Shown here: positions 33,876 to 54,211 of the stretch, piece after piece
Layout of the letters: the number at the start of each line of letters is the position of its first letter
Numbering within the stretch: position 1 is the first letter of the stretch
Virus record (IMG/VR): IMGVR_UViG_3300045747_000653
Span: 8,434 to 72,433 of that record
DNA: 64,000 bases
Source of the DNA: a virus
Direction: 5' to 3' (one strand)
Position numbers and translations under genes: made by a program
The notes under the pieces: model-generated
What the model was told of the DNA's origin: nothing
The model's database searches: none
What the model saw: the letters and a program-made list of their open reading frames with translations, nothing else

Positions 33876-34006
33876 CGCGGCACGAGTTCGTCGACCCCGA
33901 CCAACCGATCATGCTGAGCAGGGACGGCGTGGCGGAGGCGAAGCGGCTCGAGCAGCTCAAGCTCCCGCTGGCCGACGTGATCCCGATCAAGAAGCCGGTG
34001 GGGTAG
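33872..34006 (+). CDS. Small ORF coupled to cI (44 aa)
   Basis: GTG overlaps the cI stop; VTRHEFVDPDQPIML... Confidence 0.3.
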   Translation: MTRHEFVDPDQPIMLSRDGVAEAKRLEQLKLPLADVIPIKKPVG

Positions 34007-34173
34007 GCGCAGAAGCAGGTGCAGGGCTTGATGCTGAGGTAGGAACCACTGAAGTCGAGAGGGAGCGCAGAACCAAGGAAGATCCGCAGGGCTTCGGACG
34101 TTCAGTTGACGTGACATCAGACAAGTGGAAAGTGTTCGCTTCGGTCGCTACTCTCTTGGAGGGGCTACGGGGG

Positions 34174-34548
34174 ATGCTTCGAGCCATGAAGGCGGACCGA
34201 GATGGCCTACCAAGGGTGGCGCGAAAGGGGAACGCTCTCGGCGTTCGTGTCCCTGTTGACGTACACCTCGAGGGCGAGGATGTCCTTCCCGGCGAAGGGA
34301 TGTCTGTGACCGTCGGACGGATTGAGGACCTGCCACCACACCAACTGCCGGTAAGCCGAGGCGGCGACAACGATTGGGGGGTCGTCTTCGAGCACACCGC
34401 TCGCCTCCCGCAGGATCTCGTGATGGAGCACAGGCCTCTTCCGGCCTCTGCTACTCACTATCAGGTTGAGCCGGCAACCAGGATGCCGCTCGCCGCGTAT
34501 GAAGAGGCGCTCGGCAGCACCCGACCTAACTGGAGGAAGATCGCATGA
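34174..34548 (+). CDS. Putative ADP-ribosyltransferase toxin (Tse2-like ART pattern)
   Basis: RBS GGAGGGG before ATG 34174; R(AMK)...LGVR...GMSV...HYQVEP..MPLAAY..L.ST..W pattern recognised by eye. Confidence 0.6.
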   Translation: MLRAMKADRDGLPRVARKGNALGVRVPVDVHLEGEDVLPGEGMSVTVGRIEDLPPHQLPVSRGGDNDWGVVFEHTARLPQDLVMEHRPLPASATHYQVEPATRMPLAAYEEALGSTRPNWRKIA

Positions 34549-34895
34549 GCGTCGCAGCATACATGAAGCTCAGGTCGGAGATGGCTCAGGTCCGATCTCG
34601 CGAGGACGATGGCGACGACGAAGCTCGTCTCGTTGGCGAGATGGATGATGTCTGGTGGAATTTAACCTCCAAGGAGCAAGCTACCGTTCGAGCGGCAATC
34701 CTTGCCGAACGCAGAGCCCAGATGGTAGTTCCGAGCGTCCAAGTCGACTTGATGTTCGTCGTGTTTGGTAAGGTGATGGCCATCAAGCCCTCCTCCACAG
34801 TACCCGTCCCCGTGCGTGAGGTTTCCGACTTGCTCGCGTTTGGCACCGTCGCGTCGGTTCATGGACGATCGCTATTGGCCACGGCATCGGCATGA
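34545..34895 (+). CDS. Putative antitoxin: acidic helical N-terminus plus hydrophobic C-terminal extension
   Basis: ATGA overlap with the toxin gene; EMDDVWWNLTSKEQ helix followed by VQVDLMFVVFGKVMAI. Confidence 0.55.
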   Translation: MSVAAYMKLRSEMAQVRSREDDGDDEARLVGEMDDVWWNLTSKEQATVRAAILAERRAQMVVPSVQVDLMFVVFGKVMAIKPSSTVPVPVREVSDLLAFGTVASVHGRSLLATASA

Positions 34896-35344
34896 GGTCG
34901 CCCAACGCTGCATCGATCAGCGCCCTGATTTGCGAGGACGTCAGAGTCGAGGCCAGTCGACGAATCAGCCTTATGGGCATCTATGGCCCGCACATCGACA
35001 TCGAGGTGCAGCCGCCGATTATGCTGCTTCAATTGTGCGCCGTGCTCCTTATCGCAAATCCAGCTGAGATCCTTTCGTCGGTTGCGATGACGGTCGTTCA
35101 GCCGTCCGGCGAACTGCTCGGTCCTCCTCTGACGCAACTACTCGAGAAGCCGCTTGATGAGGCCTCGTTCTCGCACCAGTTGATGGTCAAGCTGGGTCCC
35201 TTCCCGATCCCAGCTGTCGGTGAGTTCAAATTCAGATTTATCTTTAATGGAGATGAAGAACTCGGCGTCGAGATTCCGATGACCGTTCGCTATAAGCCAG
35301 CGGAGCCGAAGAGTCTGGCTGCGCTGGCCCCCATTTCGGCGTAG
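34892..35344 (+). CDS. DUF6941-like beta-sandwich protein
   Basis: ALICEDVRVEASRRISLMGIY...GEFKFRFIFNG; ATGA overlap with the previous gene. Confidence 0.6.
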   Translation: MRSPNAASISALICEDVRVEASRRISLMGIYGPHIDIEVQPPIMLLQLCAVLLIANPAEILSSVAMTVVQPSGELLGPPLTQLLEKPLDEASFSHQLMVKLGPFPIPAVGEFKFRFIFNGDEELGVEIPMTVRYKPAEPKSLAALAPISA

Positions 35345-35491
35345 GCTCCGCCGCCTTCTCTCTCTTAGGCAACCCAACCTCTGCAAGCACACGCGAGCCT
35401 GAGCTTCAAGCGCCTCCCATCGAACTCTCGCTGGAGGCTTCGCCTCCGCACCACAGGGTCCCGTGCTGGAACGCCCAGCTACGTAACCACC

Positions 35492-36436
35492 TCACTCGAG
35501 CAGCTCGGGTCTCGCCTCGGTGTTCGGCTGAACTGAAAAGTGCTCGTCGGTCTCGTTGTCGGCTGCCTCTATGGCGAGGACTGCCTTCTGGACGAGACCA
35601 GCGACACGATCGTCCTCCGAACAGGCATCCGATACCAAACGCGGCCACCAGTGCTCCAGGGAGATCACGGCCAACTCCAGGCAGGCAGCGACAGCTCGAA
35701 CCTCTGCCGCCTGGCAGCCTAGCGCGCCGCCTCCCTTGCGACCAAGGTACCGGTTCCCGCGCTTCTGTTCGAGCCGCGCCCAACCTGCGATGGCCGAATA
35801 GACTTCGAGCTCCTCGTTGCTCACTGCGCCGCCCAGGGAGCGGCGTTCGCGAGCCAGCGCTGCGCGTTCTACGTTGGAGGCCTGGGCCCAATCTCGCCAA
35901 GCGCAGACGAACGAAGACATCGCGACTCGTCGCTGACGCATAGCAAGTTTGGCATCCTCTTTTCGGTCAGCCTCGGGTCGCTCAGACTCAAGCCTGACAA
36001 AGAACGGATAGGCAAAGGAACGTACGGTGGCCGCCACAACCTCCTTCGTCGTGAGAAAGAGACCAGGGTCGGTCACGACAACTTCGCCAAGTGACTCAAC
36101 AGAACCGACCTTGCGAAACCACACCCTGTAGAGCTTTTGTGGCGGGCCCCTGATGGACTGCCTGGCGAATGTCCCTCGAGGTGGGTCCTGTTCTTCAGGC
36201 TCCACCGCCACGCCGGCAGGCTCAACCGTAAACACGCCTTTTGCTGCCGTCTTGGCCACAAGAGTGTCGACGCAAGCCGGATCGCACTCGGCGGGGGCGT
36301 TGACGACGGGTGGAGCCAGATAGCGAGGACCAGGCCGAGCCAAACCTTGTACGATGGCAGACTCGACCTTGATGCCAAGCCCAACGACAGGTACCGGGGC
36401 GACGGTTGCCGCGACTAAGAGAAGAGTTCCAAGCAC
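35492..36436 (-). CDS. Exported hypothetical protein
   Basis: N-terminal hydrophobic signal-like MLGTLLLVAATVA; composition looks less GC-rich than the core genes. Confidence 0.55.
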   Translation of the reverse strand: MLGTLLLVAATVAPVPVVGLGIKVESAIVQGLARPGPRYLAPPVVNAPAECDPACVDTLVAKTAAKGVFTVEPAGVAVEPEEQDPPRGTFARQSIRGPPQKLYRVWFRKVGSVESLGEVVVTDPGLFLTTKEVVAATVRSFAYPFFVRLESERPEADRKEDAKLAMRQRRVAMSSFVCAWRDWAQASNVERAALARERRSLGGAVSNEELEVYSAIAGWARLEQKRGNRYLGRKGGGALGCQAAEVRAVAACLELAVISLEHWWPRLVSDACSEDDRVAGLVQKAVLAIEAADNETDEHFSVQPNTEARPELLE

Positions 36437-36501
36437 GGTCGAATCCTCCTGGCGCAGTTGCCAAAGATCACGAACTGCCAGAGCTTGCTCTGCATGGTGG
36501 C

Positions 36502-36849
36502 CTACGGTCTGTTGCCGACGCGACCGGCGAACTGGTCCATCTGGGCCACCATCACGGCGGTGAAGGGGATGAGCCCGAGAGCGATGGCTGCAGCGATGGC
36601 ACGCAAGATCCTGCCACCGGCGGGCTTCCCGCTCATCTCCGAGAAGTCACGCAGCGCGTCGGTCGCGCCCCGGTAGATCATGTAGACAGCGATCAAGTAC
36701 GCAACCCACTGGATCATTCCGATCATTTTCCACCCCTGTCCCCGGAGGCCGCTCAAGTGCGCCGCGGTCGCAATCATTTCTGGTGCTTGGAAGAGCTCAA
36801 CGAACATCTCCATCGTGAACGACAGGAGAGATCGAGCAACGACACCCAA
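36502..36849 (-). CDS. Small two-TM membrane protein (true start probably downstream of 36849)
   Basis: Two hydrophobic segments: MIGMIQWVAYLIAVYMIY and IAAAIALGLIPFTAVMVA. Confidence 0.45.
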   Translation of the reverse strand: MGVVARSLLSFTMEMFVELFQAPEMIATAAHLSGLRGQGWKMIGMIQWVAYLIAVYMIYRGATDALRDFSEMSGKPAGGRILRAIAAAIALGLIPFTAVMVAQMDQFAGRVGNRP

Positions 36850-37891
36850 ACTCCGATGTGCACTTATGGTAGGGCAATTCTGGGGCGCTGCCGACAGAGA
36901 ACCTGCGCCCCATCAGTCGCCGGCACGACTCGCAGGCCCGCTCTCCGTCAACCATGACCTCGACATAGCGGTAGTCTCGGCGAATCCAGCCGAGCCGCTG
37001 AACGTGCCTCCCGAATTGGGAGAACATCCTCACCGCCACATCGTTGTCGAATCCTGTGCTGTTCTTGAATCCAGGCGGAAGCCACGACGAGGCATCTGGC
37101 GTTCCCGAAAGAAGCTGCATCCCTCCTGCGACTCGCAGCTCCTCTGTCTCGGCCGGCGTCGCTGACCCGAGGATCTTCGGCGCGCCGGCGAAAATCGCCT
37201 CGAGCGCCGGCCGCACCCCGGCCGGGTCGTCGCTGGCCGACCAGTCGATCCCCATCCCTCGCTGGAAGATCTGCCCCGCCTCGAACGCCACCCAGGTCCG
37301 AGTAGCCTCTTCGAGGCGCCGATGCCGTAGGTGGTCCAGGGTCTCGGCCTCTGCGCGCGACCTCCGCTGCGCCTCGACGTCAAGGAAAGCCGTCGCGAGA
37401 GCCCGACCTTCGACGGACAGAACCACGACCTGGCCGTCGGCCGCGATGCGGCGCATCTCGTCGGGTGCAGCCTCCATCAATCTCTGAACGAGCACAGGCT
37501 TCGTGCCCGAGACCTTGAGGCCGCGGTTTTTCGCCATTGCCTTGAGCGCAGCCTGGGAGTGAAGGATCAGGAGCGCATCCTCCGTGGATGCGAGAGCAAG
37601 GAGGCCATCGGCGAGGAGGGCGCCGATCGCCGACGGCATCGTCTCGCCCAGAAGATCGGTCCAGTACGGCGCATTCGGCTCGGCGGCCGGCCTCGGCTTG
37701 CGGAACTTCGAGAGCAGCAAGAGGTGATGTCTCGACGATCGACGATCGGCGATGGGTGTCGCCAGCCTCACAGGTGGCAGTGGATCGACGCCCCGTGCCC
37801 GCTCCAACGCCGGCTCCGGCGCGGCTGAAGGCGGCGGCGACGCTGCTCGCCTGGGCTGCAGCCACGAGACGAGCTTGTCGACGATCCCCAT
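36797..37891 (-). CDS. SAP-domain protein with C-terminal Cys cluster
   Basis: AALKAMAKNRGLKVSGTKPVLVQRL SAP motif; CESC...PELPYHKC...GCRC. Confidence 0.75.
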   Translation of the reverse strand: MGIVDKLVSWLQPRRAASPPPSAAPEPALERARGVDPLPPVRLATPIADRRSSRHHLLLLSKFRKPRPAAEPNAPYWTDLLGETMPSAIGALLADGLLALASTEDALLILHSQAALKAMAKNRGLKVSGTKPVLVQRLMEAAPDEMRRIAADGQVVVLSVEGRALATAFLDVEAQRRSRAEAETLDHLRHRRLEEATRTWVAFEAGQIFQRGMGIDWSASDDPAGVRPALEAIFAGAPKILGSATPAETEELRVAGGMQLLSGTPDASSWLPPGFKNSTGFDNDVAVRMFSQFGRHVQRLGWIRRDYRYVEVMVDGERACESCRRLMGRRFSVGSAPELPYHKCTSEFGCRCSISPVVHDGDVR

Positions 37892-37950
37892 TCCGCCTCC
37901 CCTATGGCCACCCTCGCCGACCCCGCGAAAAAGATCAAACGGAATAGCGA

Positions 37951-38003
37951 CGTACCGAAATCAGCACAATCGACTTGACGGATTGTCTCGTATTCGGTAC
38001 AAC
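37951..38003 (+). promoter_or_regulatory. PL-like promoter TTGACG-N17-TACAAC with two 18-bp operators (37951-37968, 37984-38001)
   Basis: Each site matches the 33242-33259 operator at 15/18 positions; lies upstream of the early operon. Confidence 0.75.
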
Positions 38004-43695: not shown

Positions 43696-44003
43696 TGCAC
43701 GACGCGACTCCGCCCGCCGGGCCGACTCCGCCCGCCGAGCCGACTGCGCCTGCCGAGCCGACTGCGCCTGCCGGGCCGACTGCGCCTGCCGGGCCGACGC
43801 CGCCCGCCGAGCCGACTGCGCCCGCTCACGCGCCGGCGCGCTCCGGCGGCCACCTGACTGACGAGCAGCGCGCCCGGCAGGCGCTCCGGCCGGTGGGCCG
43901 CGTGATCGTGGCGGCTCCTCCCCAGAACCGACACGACCGGCGCCGGATCGCCGCAGCGATGCGCCGGAAGAAGAAGACCAACCCGCAGACCAAGGAGGCA
44001 TGA
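43695..44003 (+). CDS. Pro/Thr/Ala repeat protein with basic C-terminus
   Basis: TGATG coupling; PT(A/P)PA(E/G) repeats. Confidence 0.5.
   Translation: MHDATPPAGPTPPAEPTAPAEPTAPAGPTAPAGPTPPAEPTAPAHAPARSGGHLTDEQRARQALRPVGRVIVAAPPQNRHDRRRIAAAMRRKKKTNPQTKEA
43704..43829 (+). repeat. 18-bp coding tandem repeat, about 7 copies
   Basis: CCGACTGCGCCTGCCG(A/G)G units read directly. Confidence 0.9.
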
Positions 44004-45018: not shown

Positions 45019-45207
45019 ATGCCGCGAGGACGCCAGAGCACGATCACGAACAAGACCGACAAGGACCCGAAGGCCGCGCTGAAGGCCGCCAACGGCAACA
45101 TCGGCGCCGCCGCCGAAGACCTGGGCTGCGCGCGCGCCACGCTGACCAAGCGCCTGCGGGCGATGGGCATCGGGCCGAAGAAGACCGCCGAGCAGAGCGC
45201 GGCGTAG
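45019..45207 (+). CDS. Stand-alone Fis-type HTH protein
   Basis: ALKAANGNIGAAAEDLGCARATLTKRLRAMGI matches the HTH_8 pattern; strong RBS. Confidence 0.8.
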   Translation: MPRGRQSTITNKTDKDPKAALKAANGNIGAAAEDLGCARATLTKRLRAMGIGPKKTAEQSAA

Positions 45208-45321: not shown

Positions 45322-45603
45322 ATGACCACCTTCCAGATGCACAAGTGCCCGGAGCAGGGCTGCGGCTACGGTTGGCGCACCGAGGGCCCCGATGGCTCGG
45401 CCGTCCACCTCTCACCGTGCCCGCGCTGCCACCCGTCGGTAGAGATGACGAAGGCGGCCACTGACCTCGCCGAGTCGCTGGTCTACATGCTCGTCGCGAT
45501 CGAGCGGCGCATGGCGGCCGGCAAGATCGCCCACGACATCGAGCTGCAGATGCTGCTCCGGCGCGGCCACGATGCGCTGACCCGCGCGGGGGTGCGGCCG
45601 TGA
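45322..45603 (+). CDS. Hypothetical zinc-binding protein
   Basis: CPEQGC...CPRC; RBS GAGGAG. Confidence 0.55.
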   Translation: MTTFQMHKCPEQGCGYGWRTEGPDGSAVHLSPCPRCHPSVEMTKAATDLAESLVYMLVAIERRMAAGKIAHDIELQMLLRRGHDALTRAGVRP

Positions 45604-46037
45604 GGCGCCTCGCGCCAAGACTGGATCTGCTCTCGATGTCTCCGCTGGACCTCTGTCTTTCGGTTCGTGCCTCCAACTGCATCCAGAACGCGGGAGTGCG
45701 AACCATCGGGGAACTCACCAAGACAACGCCGGAGCAACTCATCAAGACGAAGAATTTCGGCCTCAAATCGCTTGCCGAGATCGAGGCGAAACTGGCCTGC
45801 CTCGGCCTCTCGCTGCTGCGCACCTGCAGCCTGCATACGTGCCGCATGAACATCGCCAAAGAGAAAAAGAAGTCCGACTCCGCCGAGCGCGTGGCCGCAT
45901 CGCTGAGAGATGCACTGAGTAAATACGGGAGACACCTTCCGTCTTGCGCGACGACCGCCGCTCACGACGACTGGAAGTGTTCTTGCGGGTTCCGCTACGC
46001 CATCGACGGTTGGCGCAGCGCGGGGGTGCGGCCGTGA
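45600..46037 (+). CDS. RNA polymerase alpha-subunit C-terminal domain homologue
   Basis: LSVRASNCIQNAGVRTIGELTKTTPEQLIKTKNFGLKSLAEIEAKLACLGLSL. Confidence 0.85.
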   Translation: MRRLAPRLDLLSMSPLDLCLSVRASNCIQNAGVRTIGELTKTTPEQLIKTKNFGLKSLAEIEAKLACLGLSLLRTCSLHTCRMNIAKEKKKSDSAERVAASLRDALSKYGRHLPSCATTAAHDDWKCSCGFRYAIDGWRSAGVRP

Positions 46038-47383
46038 CGACCGCCGACCTCGCGGCCCTCAAGGTAGCGGCCGCGCACGCCGCGCAGACCGTCGTGGTGC
46101 TCGAGCGCGAGCTCGCCGAGGCCCGGGAGCGGCACGCGGCGGCACGCAGGCTGCTCGAGGACGGCGTGGTCCGGTGGTTGGCGGCGCCGGTCGACGTGTC
46201 GTCGGGCTATTGCCCCGCGACCCTGGACGGCGAGCGGTGCGTCTTCGCTGCCGGTCACGCCGGCGACCACATGGCGGGCGGACGGCAGTGGGTCATCGAG
46301 CTATTGCAGGGCCCCGGATTGAGTGGCGATTGCGCGCAGAACACGCGATCGAACCGTCCGGAATCTCCGGAGAGTTCGGAGATTGCGTCCATTCCGTCCA
46401 TTCCGGGACTCAATCCTGACTCAATCGCGGCCACGACGACCGCCGCGCCGACGCCTACCGACGAGCGCGCCCCGCGGTGGGTATCCGACTCGAATCCGCC
46501 ATCCATCTACCACCTGGTCGACTCCGGGAGGGTCGCGGCGTGCGGAGAGGTGCTCGGGGCGAGGCATTACCGGCTCAAGGAGCCGCCCAGCGATGCCCGC
46601 TGCCTCGATTGCGCGGCACGGGTCGTGACCACGACGACCGCCGCTCCGTCGCCGGCCGAGATGCTCGAGCAACTCATCGCCGACGAGGACGAGGTCGGCG
46701 ACGAGGAGATGAAGACGTGCTCCCGGTGCGGCATCCGGCAGACGAAGCGGCACGTGCCGGCTTACTTCGGCGACCCGAACCACAAGACCAAGCACGTCTA
46801 CCTGCGGCCGTTCGCCGGGATGCCTCTCTGCTGGAACTGCAGCACCGAGATGGCGCCCGCCGTCACCCGTCCTCCCGACTGGCTCTACTGCCCTCCGCAC
46901 GCGAAGCCGGGAGACGCGGAGCCGCTCGCCCACGCCTTCCCGGACGGCGAGAGTGCGCTCTGCGGCGCCGGGCGGCCGACGACGACGTGGGCCTGGGCTG
47001 AGGGCCGGTGCGAACGCTGCACGCTATGCCTCGCGAACGAGCGGGGCTCCGACGTCACTCGCTCGCTGGAGTCCGACGCGATCATCCTATGTGGCGCCGG
47101 CGGGTGCTTCCGCCGCGTCGCCGCTGTCGGCGACCGCTGCGAGGACCACCCCGCCAAGGCGCGACCGCCGAAGCTCTGCGAGGTCACGGGCTGCTGCCTC
47201 CCCGGCGCGAGCGCGCCGAACTCGACCGGAGCCTGGTGCCCGGAGCACTCCAAGCTGCCGGGCGAGGAGCGGCGGGCGATTCGGGCGAAGTCAAAGGAAC
47301 TGAAGCGGGAGGCCCGGCTCGAGAAGGCGCGGGCGAAGAAGGCGGCGGAGACGCCGAAGGAAGGCGAGGTCGCGCCGTGGTGA
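46034..47383 (+). CDS. Multi-zinc-finger mosaic protein
   Basis: At least six Cys/His clusters in ~449 aa. Confidence 0.6.
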   Translation: MTTADLAALKVAAAHAAQTVVVLERELAEARERHAAARRLLEDGVVRWLAAPVDVSSGYCPATLDGERCVFAAGHAGDHMAGGRQWVIELLQGPGLSGDCAQNTRSNRPESPESSEIASIPSIPGLNPDSIAATTTAAPTPTDERAPRWVSDSNPPSIYHLVDSGRVAACGEVLGARHYRLKEPPSDARCLDCAARVVTTTTAAPSPAEMLEQLIADEDEVGDEEMKTCSRCGIRQTKRHVPAYFGDPNHKTKHVYLRPFAGMPLCWNCSTEMAPAVTRPPDWLYCPPHAKPGDAEPLAHAFPDGESALCGAGRPTTTWAWAEGRCERCTLCLANERGSDVTRSLESDAIILCGAGGCFRRVAAVGDRCEDHPAKARPPKLCEVTGCCLPGASAPNSTGAWCPEHSKLPGEERRAIRAKSKELKREARLEKARAKKAAETPKEGEVAPW

Positions 47384-48912
47384 GGCCTCCCGAGCTGCGC
47401 ATCCACTCCGACGAGCTCGTGGTCGACTCATTCGCGGGCGGCGGCGGGGCCTCCACCGGCATCGAGTGGGCGCTGGGCCGCTCGCCCGACATCGCGATCA
47501 ACCACGACCCGGAAGCCCTCGCGATGCACCGGGCCAACCACCCGGCGACCCGCCACTACTGCGAGGACGTCTGGGACGTCGATCCGGTCGAGGCGTGTGG
47601 CGGTCGCCGGGTGGGCCTCGCGTGGTTCTCGCCAGACTGCACGTTCCATAGCAAGGCCCGAGGCGGGAAGCCCTTCCGCGACCGGAACAAGGCACGGCGC
47701 CGGCGCGGCCTGGCGTGGCTCGTCGTGAAGTGGGCAAAGGCCGTGAAGCCGCGGGTCATCTGCCTGGAGAACGTCGAGGAGTTCGAACAGTGGGGCCCGC
47801 TGACGGAGGAGGGGACGCCGGACCTCGAGCGGCGCGGCTTCACCTTCCGGCGCTGGCTGGCGAGCCTTCGCGGCTGTGGCTACCAGGTCGAGTGGCGCCA
47901 GCTTCGCGCGTGCGACTACGGAGCGCCGACCTCGCGCAAGCGGCTCTTCGTGGTCGCGCGCTGCGACGGCCTCCCGATCGTCTGGCCGAAGCCGACTCAT
48001 GGGCGCGGGCTCGTCCCGTACCGGACGGCCGCCGACTGCATCGACTGGTCGATCCCGTGCCCGAGCATCTTCGACCGCACGCGGCCGCTCGCGGAGAACA
48101 CGCTCAAGAGGATCGCGCGCGGGATTCGCCGGTATGTGTTCGAGGCGGCGAGCCCGTTCATCGTGCCGGTGACCCACACCGGCGACTCGAGGGTGGCGCC
48201 GATCGATGCGCCGATGAGGACGATCACCACCGCGAAGGGTGGCGAGCTGGCGCTCTGCGCCCCGACCCTCATCCAGACCGGCTACGGCGAGCGCCAAGGG
48301 CAGGCGCCGAGGTCACTCGACCTCCAGAAGCCCCTCGGCACCGTGGTCGGCGGCGGAGCCAAGCACGCGCTCGTCGCCGCCTTCCTCGCCCGCCACTACG
48401 GCGGCCACGAGAACGACGGCGCGCCCGTGCAGATGTCGCTTCCGACAATAACGACGAAGGACCACCACGCGATCGTGACCTCGCATCTGCTCAAGCTCCG
48501 CGGCGGACTCAAGGACCACCACACCACGGCGCAGGCGCTCGACGCCCCGGCTCCGACCATCACAGCCAGCGGCACGCACCTGGCCGAGGTCCGCGCCTTC
48601 CTGATCGCGTACTACGGCACCGACCAGGACGCGCAGCTCTCGCTCCCGATGGCGACGCTGACGACCCACGACAGGTTCGCCCTCGTGGTCGTCCAGGGGG
48701 TCGAGTACGTCATCGCCGACATCGGGATGAGGATGCTGAGCCCGCGCGAGTTGTTCACCGCGCAGGGGTTCGACGCCGACTACCAAATCGAGATCGAGGG
48801 GCTCACGAAGACCGCTCAGGTCCGGATGTGCGGCAACAGCGTCTGCCCGCCGGTCGCTTCGGCCCTCGCTGGCGCGCAGTTCGCGGCTCAAGCGGCAGAG
48901 GAGGCGGCATGA
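47380..48912 (+). CDS. C5 cytosine DNA methyltransferase
   Basis: DSFAGGGG (I), SPDC (IV), ENVEEF (VI), RKRLF (VIII), GNSV (X). Confidence 0.93.
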   Translation: MRPPELRIHSDELVVDSFAGGGGASTGIEWALGRSPDIAINHDPEALAMHRANHPATRHYCEDVWDVDPVEACGGRRVGLAWFSPDCTFHSKARGGKPFRDRNKARRRRGLAWLVVKWAKAVKPRVICLENVEEFEQWGPLTEEGTPDLERRGFTFRRWLASLRGCGYQVEWRQLRACDYGAPTSRKRLFVVARCDGLPIVWPKPTHGRGLVPYRTAADCIDWSIPCPSIFDRTRPLAENTLKRIARGIRRYVFEAASPFIVPVTHTGDSRVAPIDAPMRTITTAKGGELALCAPTLIQTGYGERQGQAPRSLDLQKPLGTVVGGGAKHALVAAFLARHYGGHENDGAPVQMSLPTITTKDHHAIVTSHLLKLRGGLKDHHTTAQALDAPAPTITASGTHLAEVRAFLIAYYGTDQDAQLSLPMATLTTHDRFALVVVQGVEYVIADIGMRMLSPRELFTAQGFDADYQIEIEGLTKTAQVRMCGNSVCPPVASALAGAQFAAQAAEEAA

Positions 48913-49136
48913 CGACATTCCCCTGCCCAGCCTGCCGAGTGGTCGAGCTGAGCGGCTTCCCGCATGAGAAGTACTGCGCCCGCGGCCGCCTCGTCGATGC
49001 TGCGCCCGAACTGCTCGCAGTGCTCAAGCGCTGCATTGATGAGCTTCGATCGGCGATGCGGCAGAACCTCATCGTCGACGGCCGGCTGGTGAAGCACGCC
49101 CACGCGCTCGTCGAGAAGATCGAGGGCAATCGATGA
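48909..49136 (+). CDS. Hypothetical protein
   Basis: ATGA coupling; CPAC and AAPELL motifs. Confidence 0.5.
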   Translation: MTTFPCPACRVVELSGFPHEKYCARGRLVDAAPELLAVLKRCIDELRSAMRQNLIVDGRLVKHAHALVEKIEGNR

Positions 49137-50697: not shown

Positions 50698-50954
50698 CGA
50701 CCCGACTCTACGCGCTGCCGCTGAGGGCCCACGAGAGGCTCGGGATCGACGTCGGCTCCATCTGCTGGGGCTCGTGCGGGAGGGGCAGTGTCGGCTCGAT
50801 CAACCTGGACCGCGACGAGGCGATTCCGTGCTCGGAGCCCGCCTCCGGGTGTCCGCAGCACGACCAGGACTCGGAGCGGCCCTACGGGACCGTGCAGGAC
50901 GGCATGGGTCGGGAGTGCGTGGTGTTCCTGCGGCGGCTGCGGAGGACGGCGTGA
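50694..50954 (+). CDS. Cys-containing hypothetical protein
   Basis: GTGA coupling. Confidence 0.45.
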   Translation: MTTRLYALPLRAHERLGIDVGSICWGSCGRGSVGSINLDRDEAIPCSEPASGCPQHDQDSERPYGTVQDGMGRECVVFLRRLRRTA

Positions 50955-51673
50955 CCTCCCAATGCCCCCGCTGCCAGCGCTACGGAGGCGAGTGCGACGA
51001 CTTCCGCGCCTGCGACGACCGCCAGGAGTTGAACGGGATGGCGAAGGAGTTGAACGAGGCTCGCGCCGAGATCGAGCGGCAGAAGTCAGCGCACGCGACG
51101 TTCAGGTCCATCGCGGAGGCCAACTTCAACATGGCCATCGAGCAGCGCGGCGAGCTGCGGGCGGAGGTCGAGCGGCAGCGCGCACGCGCCGAAGAGGCGG
51201 AGAAGGAGCGCGACGAGGCCGACAGGGCCGTGGCTGACGCTATCGCCGCGCTACAGGACAAGGCCGTGGACTCGATCTGCTCGTGGTGCGGCGCCCTGTC
51301 GACGAAGGACCAGGCCCGAGCACACCTCGCGGTCTGTCCCACGCACCCCCTGCGCGCTGCGGAGGCCCGCGCCGATGCCGCCGAGGCCGAGTTGTCCGGC
51401 TACCTGCGCCACTCCGGACTGACGCGGGCCGACACCCAGGCGCAGGACCTGCTCGCGCTGCTGGACCTGCAACGGGAGCAACTCGACGTCGCATGGGCTG
51501 ACCGACGCGAAGCAGAGAAGGAGAGCCTGGAGATGCAGGAGAAGTGCGACCGGCTGATGGTGGCTCTGCAGGCGCTGCTGCCCTACCTGGATGCGCACCC
51601 AGTCCCGGTGATCGGTGAAGCGCTGAAACAGCAGGCCCGCGCCGCCCTCGCAGAGGTGTACCCCCGTGGCTGA
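50951..51673 (+). CDS. Coiled-coil protein with zinc motifs
   Basis: CPRC, CSWC...HLAVCPTH, heptad-rich. Confidence 0.55.
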   Translation: MTSQCPRCQRYGGECDDFRACDDRQELNGMAKELNEARAEIERQKSAHATFRSIAEANFNMAIEQRGELRAEVERQRARAEEAEKERDEADRAVADAIAALQDKAVDSICSWCGALSTKDQARAHLAVCPTHPLRAAEARADAAEAELSGYLRHSGLTRADTQAQDLLALLDLQREQLDVAWADRREAEKESLEMQEKCDRLMVALQALLPYLDAHPVPVIGEALKQQARAALAEVYPRG

Positions 51674-51944
51674 CCCGCGCTCCCTCATCTCGGCGACCTG
51701 CGACGAGATCAAGTCCCTCCTCCTGGAGAAGAACGCCAAGTACGGCAACTCGGCGCTGGAGCCGGCCCGGATCTTCTCGCGGGCAGACCCGGTGGAGCAG
51801 ATCCGGGTGCGGATCGACGACAAGCTCTCGCGCATCCGCACGACCGGCGAGGCCGCCAGCGACGAGGACACCGCCCGCGACCTCTGCGGCTACCTCGTTC
51901 TCCTGCTCGTGGCGAAGAAGCTCGCGCAAGGGGGCGGACGATGA
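51666..51944 (+). CDS. DUF1599 / nucleotide-modification-associated domain 1 protein
   Basis: LLEKNAKYGNS...RIDDKLSRI...DTARDLCGY. Confidence 0.8.
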   Translation: MADPRSLISATCDEIKSLLLEKNAKYGNSALEPARIFSRADPVEQIRVRIDDKLSRIRTTGEAASDEDTARDLCGYLVLLLVAKKLAQGGGR

Positions 51945-52411
51945 GCGGCGGAAGCTGGAACTCCGAGCACGACGAACGATGCCGCGGCGAGTGCCGCCAC
52001 CCCAGTCACAACTTCGGCTGGCACCAGAAGCGGACCAATAAGAAGCGAGGCGCCTGCGTGGATTGGGTCTGCGACGGACTTGGTCCCGCGCATGGGAGTA
52101 TCGCGATGATCGTGCGGACAAAGAGGCCCTGGCATCTGTCGTGGGCGCCGGGCATCAATCCGAAGCGCAACATGCGACGCTTGCTGCTCTCCGTCGAGCC
52201 AGGGGTGGCGCTCGGTTGGGTGACAGTGCCGGACTGGAATCCAGAGGACGACGACACTGTCCGCCTCATCTGCGCCGCGCCAGAGATGTACGAGGCGCTG
52301 CGTGGCGCGCTGGATGCCATCTCGACCATTGGCAGCATCCCCGGCGGCCCAAGCGACACGGCGCGGAGAATCATAGAGGGCGCGCTGGCGAAAGCGAATG
52401 GCAAGCCATGA
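51941..52411 (+). CDS. Hypothetical protein
   Basis: ATGA coupling; LICAAPEMYEAL motif. Confidence 0.5.
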   Translation: MSGGSWNSEHDERCRGECRHPSHNFGWHQKRTNKKRGACVDWVCDGLGPAHGSIAMIVRTKRPWHLSWAPGINPKRNMRRLLLSVEPGVALGWVTVPDWNPEDDDTVRLICAAPEMYEALRGALDAISTIGSIPGGPSDTARRIIEGALAKANGKP

Positions 52412-54185: not shown

Positions 54186-54211
54186 TGGCGGGGTGTACGG
54201 GACTCGAACCC
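54186..54211 (-). other. att core: 3' end of a tRNA (probably tRNA-Asp), not a complete tRNA
   Basis: GGGTTCGAGTCCCGTACACCCCGCCA is T-arm, acceptor 3' strand, G73 and CCA; no matching 5' half upstream. Confidence 0.75.

Follow-up and report, generated by a model that had tools for sequence, protein, structure and literature searches.

[quoted passage not shown] The question is raised by a gene in a 64,000-nucleotide stretch of viral DNA (the window, to which all coordinates refer), for which the initial annotation had proposed a detached alpha-CTD with three conceivable uses: titration of host activators or NusA, competition at UP elements, or assistance to antitermination in the early operon. 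We focus here on which surfaces of the domain have survived, what the domain is joined to and how the gene came to lie where it does. Our tentative answer, which we put a little short of an even chance, is that the product is a DNA-binding modulator that would block alpha-CTD sites at host or phage promoters; competition at sites of the UP-element type appears the most likely of the three earlier ideas.

The gene and its start

The gene and the parts of its product are laid out as follows.

45600..46037, + strand: open reading frame of the alpha-CTD/Cys-His gene, 145 aa, with a GTG start overlapping the upstream stop codon
45636, + strand: ATG, an alternative start of the same gene, which would give 133 aa
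45624..45818, + strand: alpha-CTD domain, residues 9-73, with the 265 determinant intact and the 261 and 287 determinants eroded
45819..45851, + strand: linker, residues 74-84, with extra C76, H79 and C81
45852..46034, + strand: recurrent phage module (the tail), Mx4 p28-like; long helix 85-109, putative zinc knuckle H112/C116/C127/C129 and a short helix

GTG at 45600 is the more likely start, since it overlaps the upstream stop codon, lies 6 nt downstream of a G-rich ribosome-binding site (RBS) and retains L11, a residue with 100% conservation across the RpoA set. A second assembly record carries 100% identical DNA over 6,402 bp, which argues against an assembly artefact, with the proviso that it possibly comes from the same sample.

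Phage genome, early operon and probable host

The window belongs to a virus record of 77,656 bp (GC 70%), which we take as a complete circular genome because its ends repeat over about 147 bp. Genes for terminase, major capsid, helicase, a Toprim protein, excisionase and tyrosine integrase are carried, and the phage is temperate and complete at 77.5 kb. The alpha-CTD gene does lie in the early operon, as had been proposed, among recombination and integration genes (ERF, exonuclease, SSB, excisionase and integrase). This operon, on the + strand and translationally coupled, encodes an ATPase, ERF, a PD-(D/E)XK nuclease, SSB, DUF2303, a Fis-like HTH protein, a methyltransferase, excisionase and integrase, in a layout that resembles the lambda PL early operon. 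Three features help to place the gene within it.

37975..38003, + strand: putative early-operon promoter, TTGACG-N17-TACAAC, 7.6 kb upstream of the alpha-CTD gene
45019..45207, + strand: Fis-family HTH_8 protein, 62 aa, stand-alone (E 2.5e-6), two genes upstream of the alpha-CTD gene
54186-54211: attP core, 26 nt, tRNA-end-like, just past the integrase

The consensus promoter scan found no promoter under its rule, by which TTGACG-N17-TACAAC was not scored. UP elements upstream of two phage promoters were considered and set aside, their 50-55% A/T (top 1-4% of the genome) being too weak to call. Elsewhere in the window, about 4 kb of lower-GC accessory genes (33900-37900) separate the repressor region from the early promoter, and an 18-bp tandem repeat of about 7 copies (43698-43832) encodes, within an ORF of 102 aa, a linker rich in Pro, Ala and Thr.

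The uncultured host is probably a myxobacterium, because the best phage match of the integrase is that of Myxococcus phage Mx8 (36.7%, E 3e-55), the attP core is found exactly in 17/301 Myxococcota genomes (the search covering Myxococcota only) and the closest cultured relative of the tail is in Myxococcus phage Mx4.

An alpha-CTD without the rest of RpoA

First of all, the domain is what it had been taken for. Residues 11-66 match Pfam RNA_pol_A_CTD (PF03118), and no other Pfam family, over model positions 11-66 of 67 with 64.8 bits (E 5.9e-18), above the gathering cut-off of 23.8, and residues 5-73 align with 43 RpoA alpha-CTD sequences of solved structure (best E 1.3e-12); the motifs quoted earlier (LSVRxxNC, TIGEL and KNFGxKSLxEI) are all present. 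Just eight residues precede the domain in the 145-aa product, so there is no alpha-NTD, and neither alpha-NTD family, RNA_pol_L or RNA_pol_A_bac, has a Pfam match in it, which bears out the detached state that had been claimed. We rejected the identification of the gene as a functional RpoA: the alpha-NTD is missing, the 261 and 287 determinants are mostly lost and the gene is outside the ribosomal-protein alpha operon. Because both the alpha-NTD and the RpoA linker are missing, the product would be unable to assemble into RNA polymerase.

As regards origin, the best identity of the phage domain to any RpoA is 54%, a KTKNFG signature is common to it and to the RpoA of Myxococcota, Acidobacteriota and Desulfobacterota, and a tree built with RpoA leaves the phage domain on a long, unplaced branch, from which no donor can be named. 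The modest identity and the long branch, with the DNA face kept, thus point to an old capture and not to a fresh fragment of host rpoA. The extra PF03118 proteins of Myxococcota are not an evident donor, scoring at most 37 bits to the query versus 45-53 bits for RpoA; in 25 genomes these matches lie in longer frames, of 295-1,656 aa. Many Myxococcota genomes also encode large proteins whose open frames, about 1,340-1,660 aa long, contain diverged alpha-CTD-like domains; three further Myxococcota proteins of 520-830 aa (L295-L297) end in an alpha-CTD, and the two scanned (L296 and L297) also have a weak RNA_pol_Rpb1_1 match.

Which surfaces survive

Second, the three determinants of the alpha-CTD, defined as in PMC10853779, have fared very differently. 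Our comparison drew on a narrow set of 82 distinct RpoA domains, genomic and metagenomic in origin, of Acidobacteriota, Myxococcota and Desulfobacterota. The 265 determinant is kept in full (7/7): R265, N268, N294, G296, K298, S299 and E302 of Escherichia coli correspond to R23, N26, N52, G54, K56, S57 and E60, among them the four DNA-contact residues (R265, N268, G296 and K298) that had been thought retained. The 261 determinant (257-259 and 261), which contacts sigma region 4, on the other hand keeps one of its four residues, and the 287 determinant (285-289 and 315), which contacts class I activators, two of its six; the substitutions, in E. coli numbering, are E286P, V287E, E288Q, G315L, V257P, D258L and E261C. 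Taken as 7/7 versus 3/10 for the other two determinants together, the difference gives a one-sided Fisher p of 0.006, and the contrast is milder against all near-invariant RpoA positions (7/7 versus 17/29, p 0.04). Twelve other viral free alpha-CTDs have the same bias (retention 86% in the 265 determinant versus 45%; R265 in 12/12, E286 in 2/12, E261 in 3/11), part of which is owed to a search pattern that included positions 268, 294 and 296, though not R265. Part of the bias may also be structural, several 265 residues lying in the helix-hairpin-helix core.

This pattern speaks for DNA binding. It tells against the earlier idea that class I activators are titrated, which the counts just given weaken. 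Sequestration of CRP-like activators through the 287 patch, or bridging to sigma, is something that the native alpha-CTD does (PMC1874639), but we consider it extremely improbable for the phage product, in which the 287 and 261 residues are replaced at positions that the other viral copies lose as well.

Conservation of the 265 face is nevertheless not proof that DNA is the ligand, because the face also binds proteins, and some activators use the 265 determinant (PMC10853779). The product could, with its intact 265 face, be a protein decoy that sequesters NusA, regulators of the SoxS/MarA/Spx type or R265-modifying enzymes and so alters pausing, termination or stress responses. An isolated alpha-CTD does bind NusA-AR2, with a KD of about 8 uM, as well as NusA-NTD (PMC7171158, PMC5842316), and phages are known to target the domain, phiKMV Rac being a phage protein that attacks the host alpha-CTD (PMC7552054). 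We hold such a decoy to be quite unlikely. Descriptions of the AR2 target concern gammaproteobacteria, E. coli among them (PMC7171158), and in five Myxococcota genomes no AR repeat passed the cut-off, which is a weak test; a free competitor of micromolar affinity must beat tethered native domains; and no intrinsic terminator is predicted on the + strand between the putative promoter and the alpha-CTD gene. Nothing was found in support of the antitermination role.

The Cys/His tail module

Third, the domain is joined, through a linker (residues 74-84) for which no homologue was found, to a tail that had been described as an unrelated Cys/His sequence. That tail is indeed there and has no relation to RpoA, but it belongs to a phage module that recurs in 25 viral contigs, in Mx4 p28 and in 7/401 Myxococcota genomes. 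A weak match to Myxococcus phage Mx4 p28 (UAW08027.1) prompted us to search IMG/VR at the DNA level with a pattern derived from the query, and this gathered 26 ORF matches in those contigs. The module consists of a helix ending in ALxKYG, then H-x3-C-x5..17-C[TS]CG and a short helix. Its conservation extends beyond the search pattern, to L (21/25), A (16/25) and L (21/25) before YG, and an HMM built without the query gives 46 bits (E 1e-13) to the query tail and 39 bits to Mx4 p28. No Pfam family was found for the module, nor any match at E 0.01 in PHROGs v4, a library limited to its source phages.

Four His/Cys ligands suggest that H112, C116, C127 and C129 form a putative zinc knuckle. AF2 models the tail as a helix-loop-helix with a pLDDT of 71 (about 60 in the loop), while the single-sequence model of the whole 145-aa protein was unusable (pLDDT 41); a fold search with the tail model gave no meaningful match (best Z 3.6), a result that shows nothing about novelty. 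The module is also found C-terminal to long coiled coils in other proteins, and one viral contig has two copies in adjacent genes. From these occurrences it behaves as a plug-in module, alone or joined to varied N-terminal regions. A widespread and unannotated phage module is thereby exposed by this gene, and it merits a family model of its own.

A probable inserted cassette

The immediate surroundings of the gene bear on how it arrived.

45322..45603, + strand: upstream gene, 93 aa, Cys-rich N-terminus and helical tail, native GC3 of 0.94
45584..45603, + strand: left copy of an exact 20-bp direct repeat, at the upstream gene's end, with the RBS and the GTGA stop/start overlap
46018..46037, + strand: right copy of the repeat, 434 bp after the first, with the end of the alpha-CTD gene and the RBS and start of the next gene
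46034..47383, + strand: downstream gene, 449 aa, translationally coupled

The alpha-CTD gene has a GC of 0.61 and a GC3 of 0.77, where the GC3 of the operon is about 0.93 (binomial P 1e-7). Both halves of the gene are equally low in GC3 (0.77 and 0.78). Because of this low GC3 and the exact bracketing by the direct repeat, the gene looks like an inserted cassette. Owing to the repeat, the upstream gene and the alpha-CTD gene end in the same five residues; among 351 operon gene-end pairs no other suffix is shared over such a length, the runner-up being 10 nt. In silico excision of the 434 bp between the repeats leaves a clean coupled junction from the upstream to the downstream gene, and the simplest history would be recombination at shared RBS/stop microhomology. 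Tail-family proteins encoded in myxobacterial genomes typically have a GGVRP-type ending. As for an empty site, no relatives of the upstream gene were found, and IMG/VR held no copy of the 20-bp repeat. The neighbouring Fis-like HTH_8 gene did not arrive with the cassette, since its GC3 is native (0.95).

Several early genes (48909-49136 and 51941-52411 on the + strand, also 45322-45603 and 50951-51673) end in a similar helical module. Two of them share an AAPE[LM] motif and have a GC3 of 0.81 and 0.79, suggesting that further plug-in genes have been imported.

The same features would suit a passenger of almost neutral effect, in which recombination at microhomology had brought in a chance fusion: the architecture is a singleton, the codon usage is foreign and the cassette looks excisable. 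Such a history is improbable in our judgement, however, for a gene whose frame is intact, whose RBS and coupling are preserved and in which every key residue of both modules has been kept after long divergence.

Free alpha-CTDs in other phages and proteins

No full-length homologue was found in a 5.8-billion word search, among 1.84 billion representatives or in IMG/VR; among the representatives, every match except the protein itself covers the alpha-CTD only, none reaching beyond residue 108. By these searches the fusion of alpha-CTD and Cys/His module is a singleton, and new. The detached domain, on the other hand, is not confined to this phage. A restrictive pattern search of IMG/VR recovered alpha-CTDs in 13 contigs, in ORFs of 67-332 aa, and of seven such proteins scanned none has an alpha-NTD family and three have HTH_17. 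These three (about 285-330 aa) combine an N-terminal HTH_17 with an alpha-CTD, in one case with sigma70 region 4 between, and another (L043) has an N-terminal alpha-CTD followed by a helical, coiled-coil tail, the same order as in the query, and lies among replication-type genes. The cultured Bacillus phage vB_BmeM-Goe8 encodes c00050 (QDP42789.1, annotated 'RNA polymerase subunit alpha'), 210 aa, which ends in an alpha-CTD and whose gene sits among small genes at the genome end. In ESM Atlas, alpha-CTD proteins of 128 aa form a cluster with 87 members (score 0.76), which we treat as a lead only. INPHARED gave 22 matches, including two from Goe8 and four annotated RpoA in bacterial records; one match was rejected as a full RpoA on a bacterial-type contig. 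In the literature searched, in which few subscription journals were covered, we found no functional study of free phage alpha-CTDs. Among the representatives are also proteins in which as many as 12 alpha-CTD-like stretches occur, such as P0007 (900 aa) and P0006 (806 aa).

These comparisons lend some weight to a different role, in which the alpha-CTD is general DNA-binding cargo that anchors the tail for recombination, excision, replication or DNA organisation and hardly affects host transcription. The conservation pattern would fit equally, the gene is surrounded by genes for recombination and integration and one for a Fis-like HTH protein, the alpha-CTD/coiled-coil gene of L043 lies among replication-type genes, and the alpha-CTD is repeated in many unrelated proteins, in which as many as 12 stretches match. 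We regard this role as unlikely, if worth keeping in mind, since simpler DNA-binding domains are plentiful in phages, the RpoA-specific residues are fully kept and the Goe8 copy is among small terminal genes, not in a replication module.

Site blocking is supported by the several viral alpha-CTD copies that are fused to HTH DNA-binding domains, by the place of the Goe8 copy at the end of that phage's genome and by the position of the present gene in a coupled early operon. It is conceivable, if somewhat doubtful, that phages have repeatedly captured the alpha-CTD, kept its DNA face and joined it to interchangeable modules, forming a class of UP-element blockers of which this gene would be one member, carried in a mobile cassette.

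A proposed mode of action

How might such a blocker work? We propose that an accessory early gene arrived as one cassette from another phage and that its product would be made early through translational coupling. Through R23, N26, G54, K56 and S57 it would bind A/T-rich DNA in the minor groove. DNA binding by an alpha-CTD without its tether is weak, and the tail would aid it through self-association or a partner. The product would then occupy host alpha-CTD sites, namely UP elements and sites beside activators, and would occupy rather than activate them because it would be unable to recruit polymerase or activators; it may thus work like a dominant-negative alpha-CTD. As an outcome, some of the strong host promoters would become less productive, or phage promoters would be tuned, and the rarity of A/T-rich tracts in DNA of roughly 70% GC could make the blocking fairly selective. 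Sequence cannot separate the blocker from the DNA anchor or the decoy, because all three need the same intact face. The gene is small, its conservation pattern is split and a single substitution (R23A) would serve as a control, all of which makes the proposal readily testable.

Comparison with known systems

The closest system is RpoA itself (PF03118; PDB 1z3e_B, 1coo_A, 1lb2_B, 2jzb_A), which the phage domain resembles over its whole length and in all seven 265-determinant residues. [quoted passage not shown] Goe8 c00050 and the IMG/VR free alpha-CTDs are likewise phage-encoded, without an NTD and with R265 kept, but they have other partners (HTH_17, sigma70 region 4, unknown domains) or none; they are 30-47% identical to the query, none has the Cys/His module and no shared origin is demonstrable. 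The domain itself is textbook, and free phage alpha-CTDs recur in 13 IMG/VR contigs and in Goe8; this fusion is what is new. Mx4 p28 and its Myxococcota relatives share with the tail the helix and the YGxH-x3-C...CxC(G) knuckle (39% identity over 41 aa), and a similar RBS-coded C-terminus of the GGVRP/GGLKP type is found in 8/9 myxobacterial relatives besides Mx4. They are, however, stand-alone hypothetical proteins of ~70 aa, without an alpha-CTD and with no Pfam or PHROG family found for them.

Finally, T4 Alt and ModA are, like phiKMV Rac, phage proteins that attack the host alpha-CTD, and they plausibly share with the present product the goal of less alpha-CTD-dependent host transcription. 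They are enzymes that cleave or modify alpha, whereas here we have a copy of the domain without a catalytic module. If the proposal is true, an alpha-CTD copy reduced to its DNA face would be a different route to the end that those enzymes reach by cutting or modifying.
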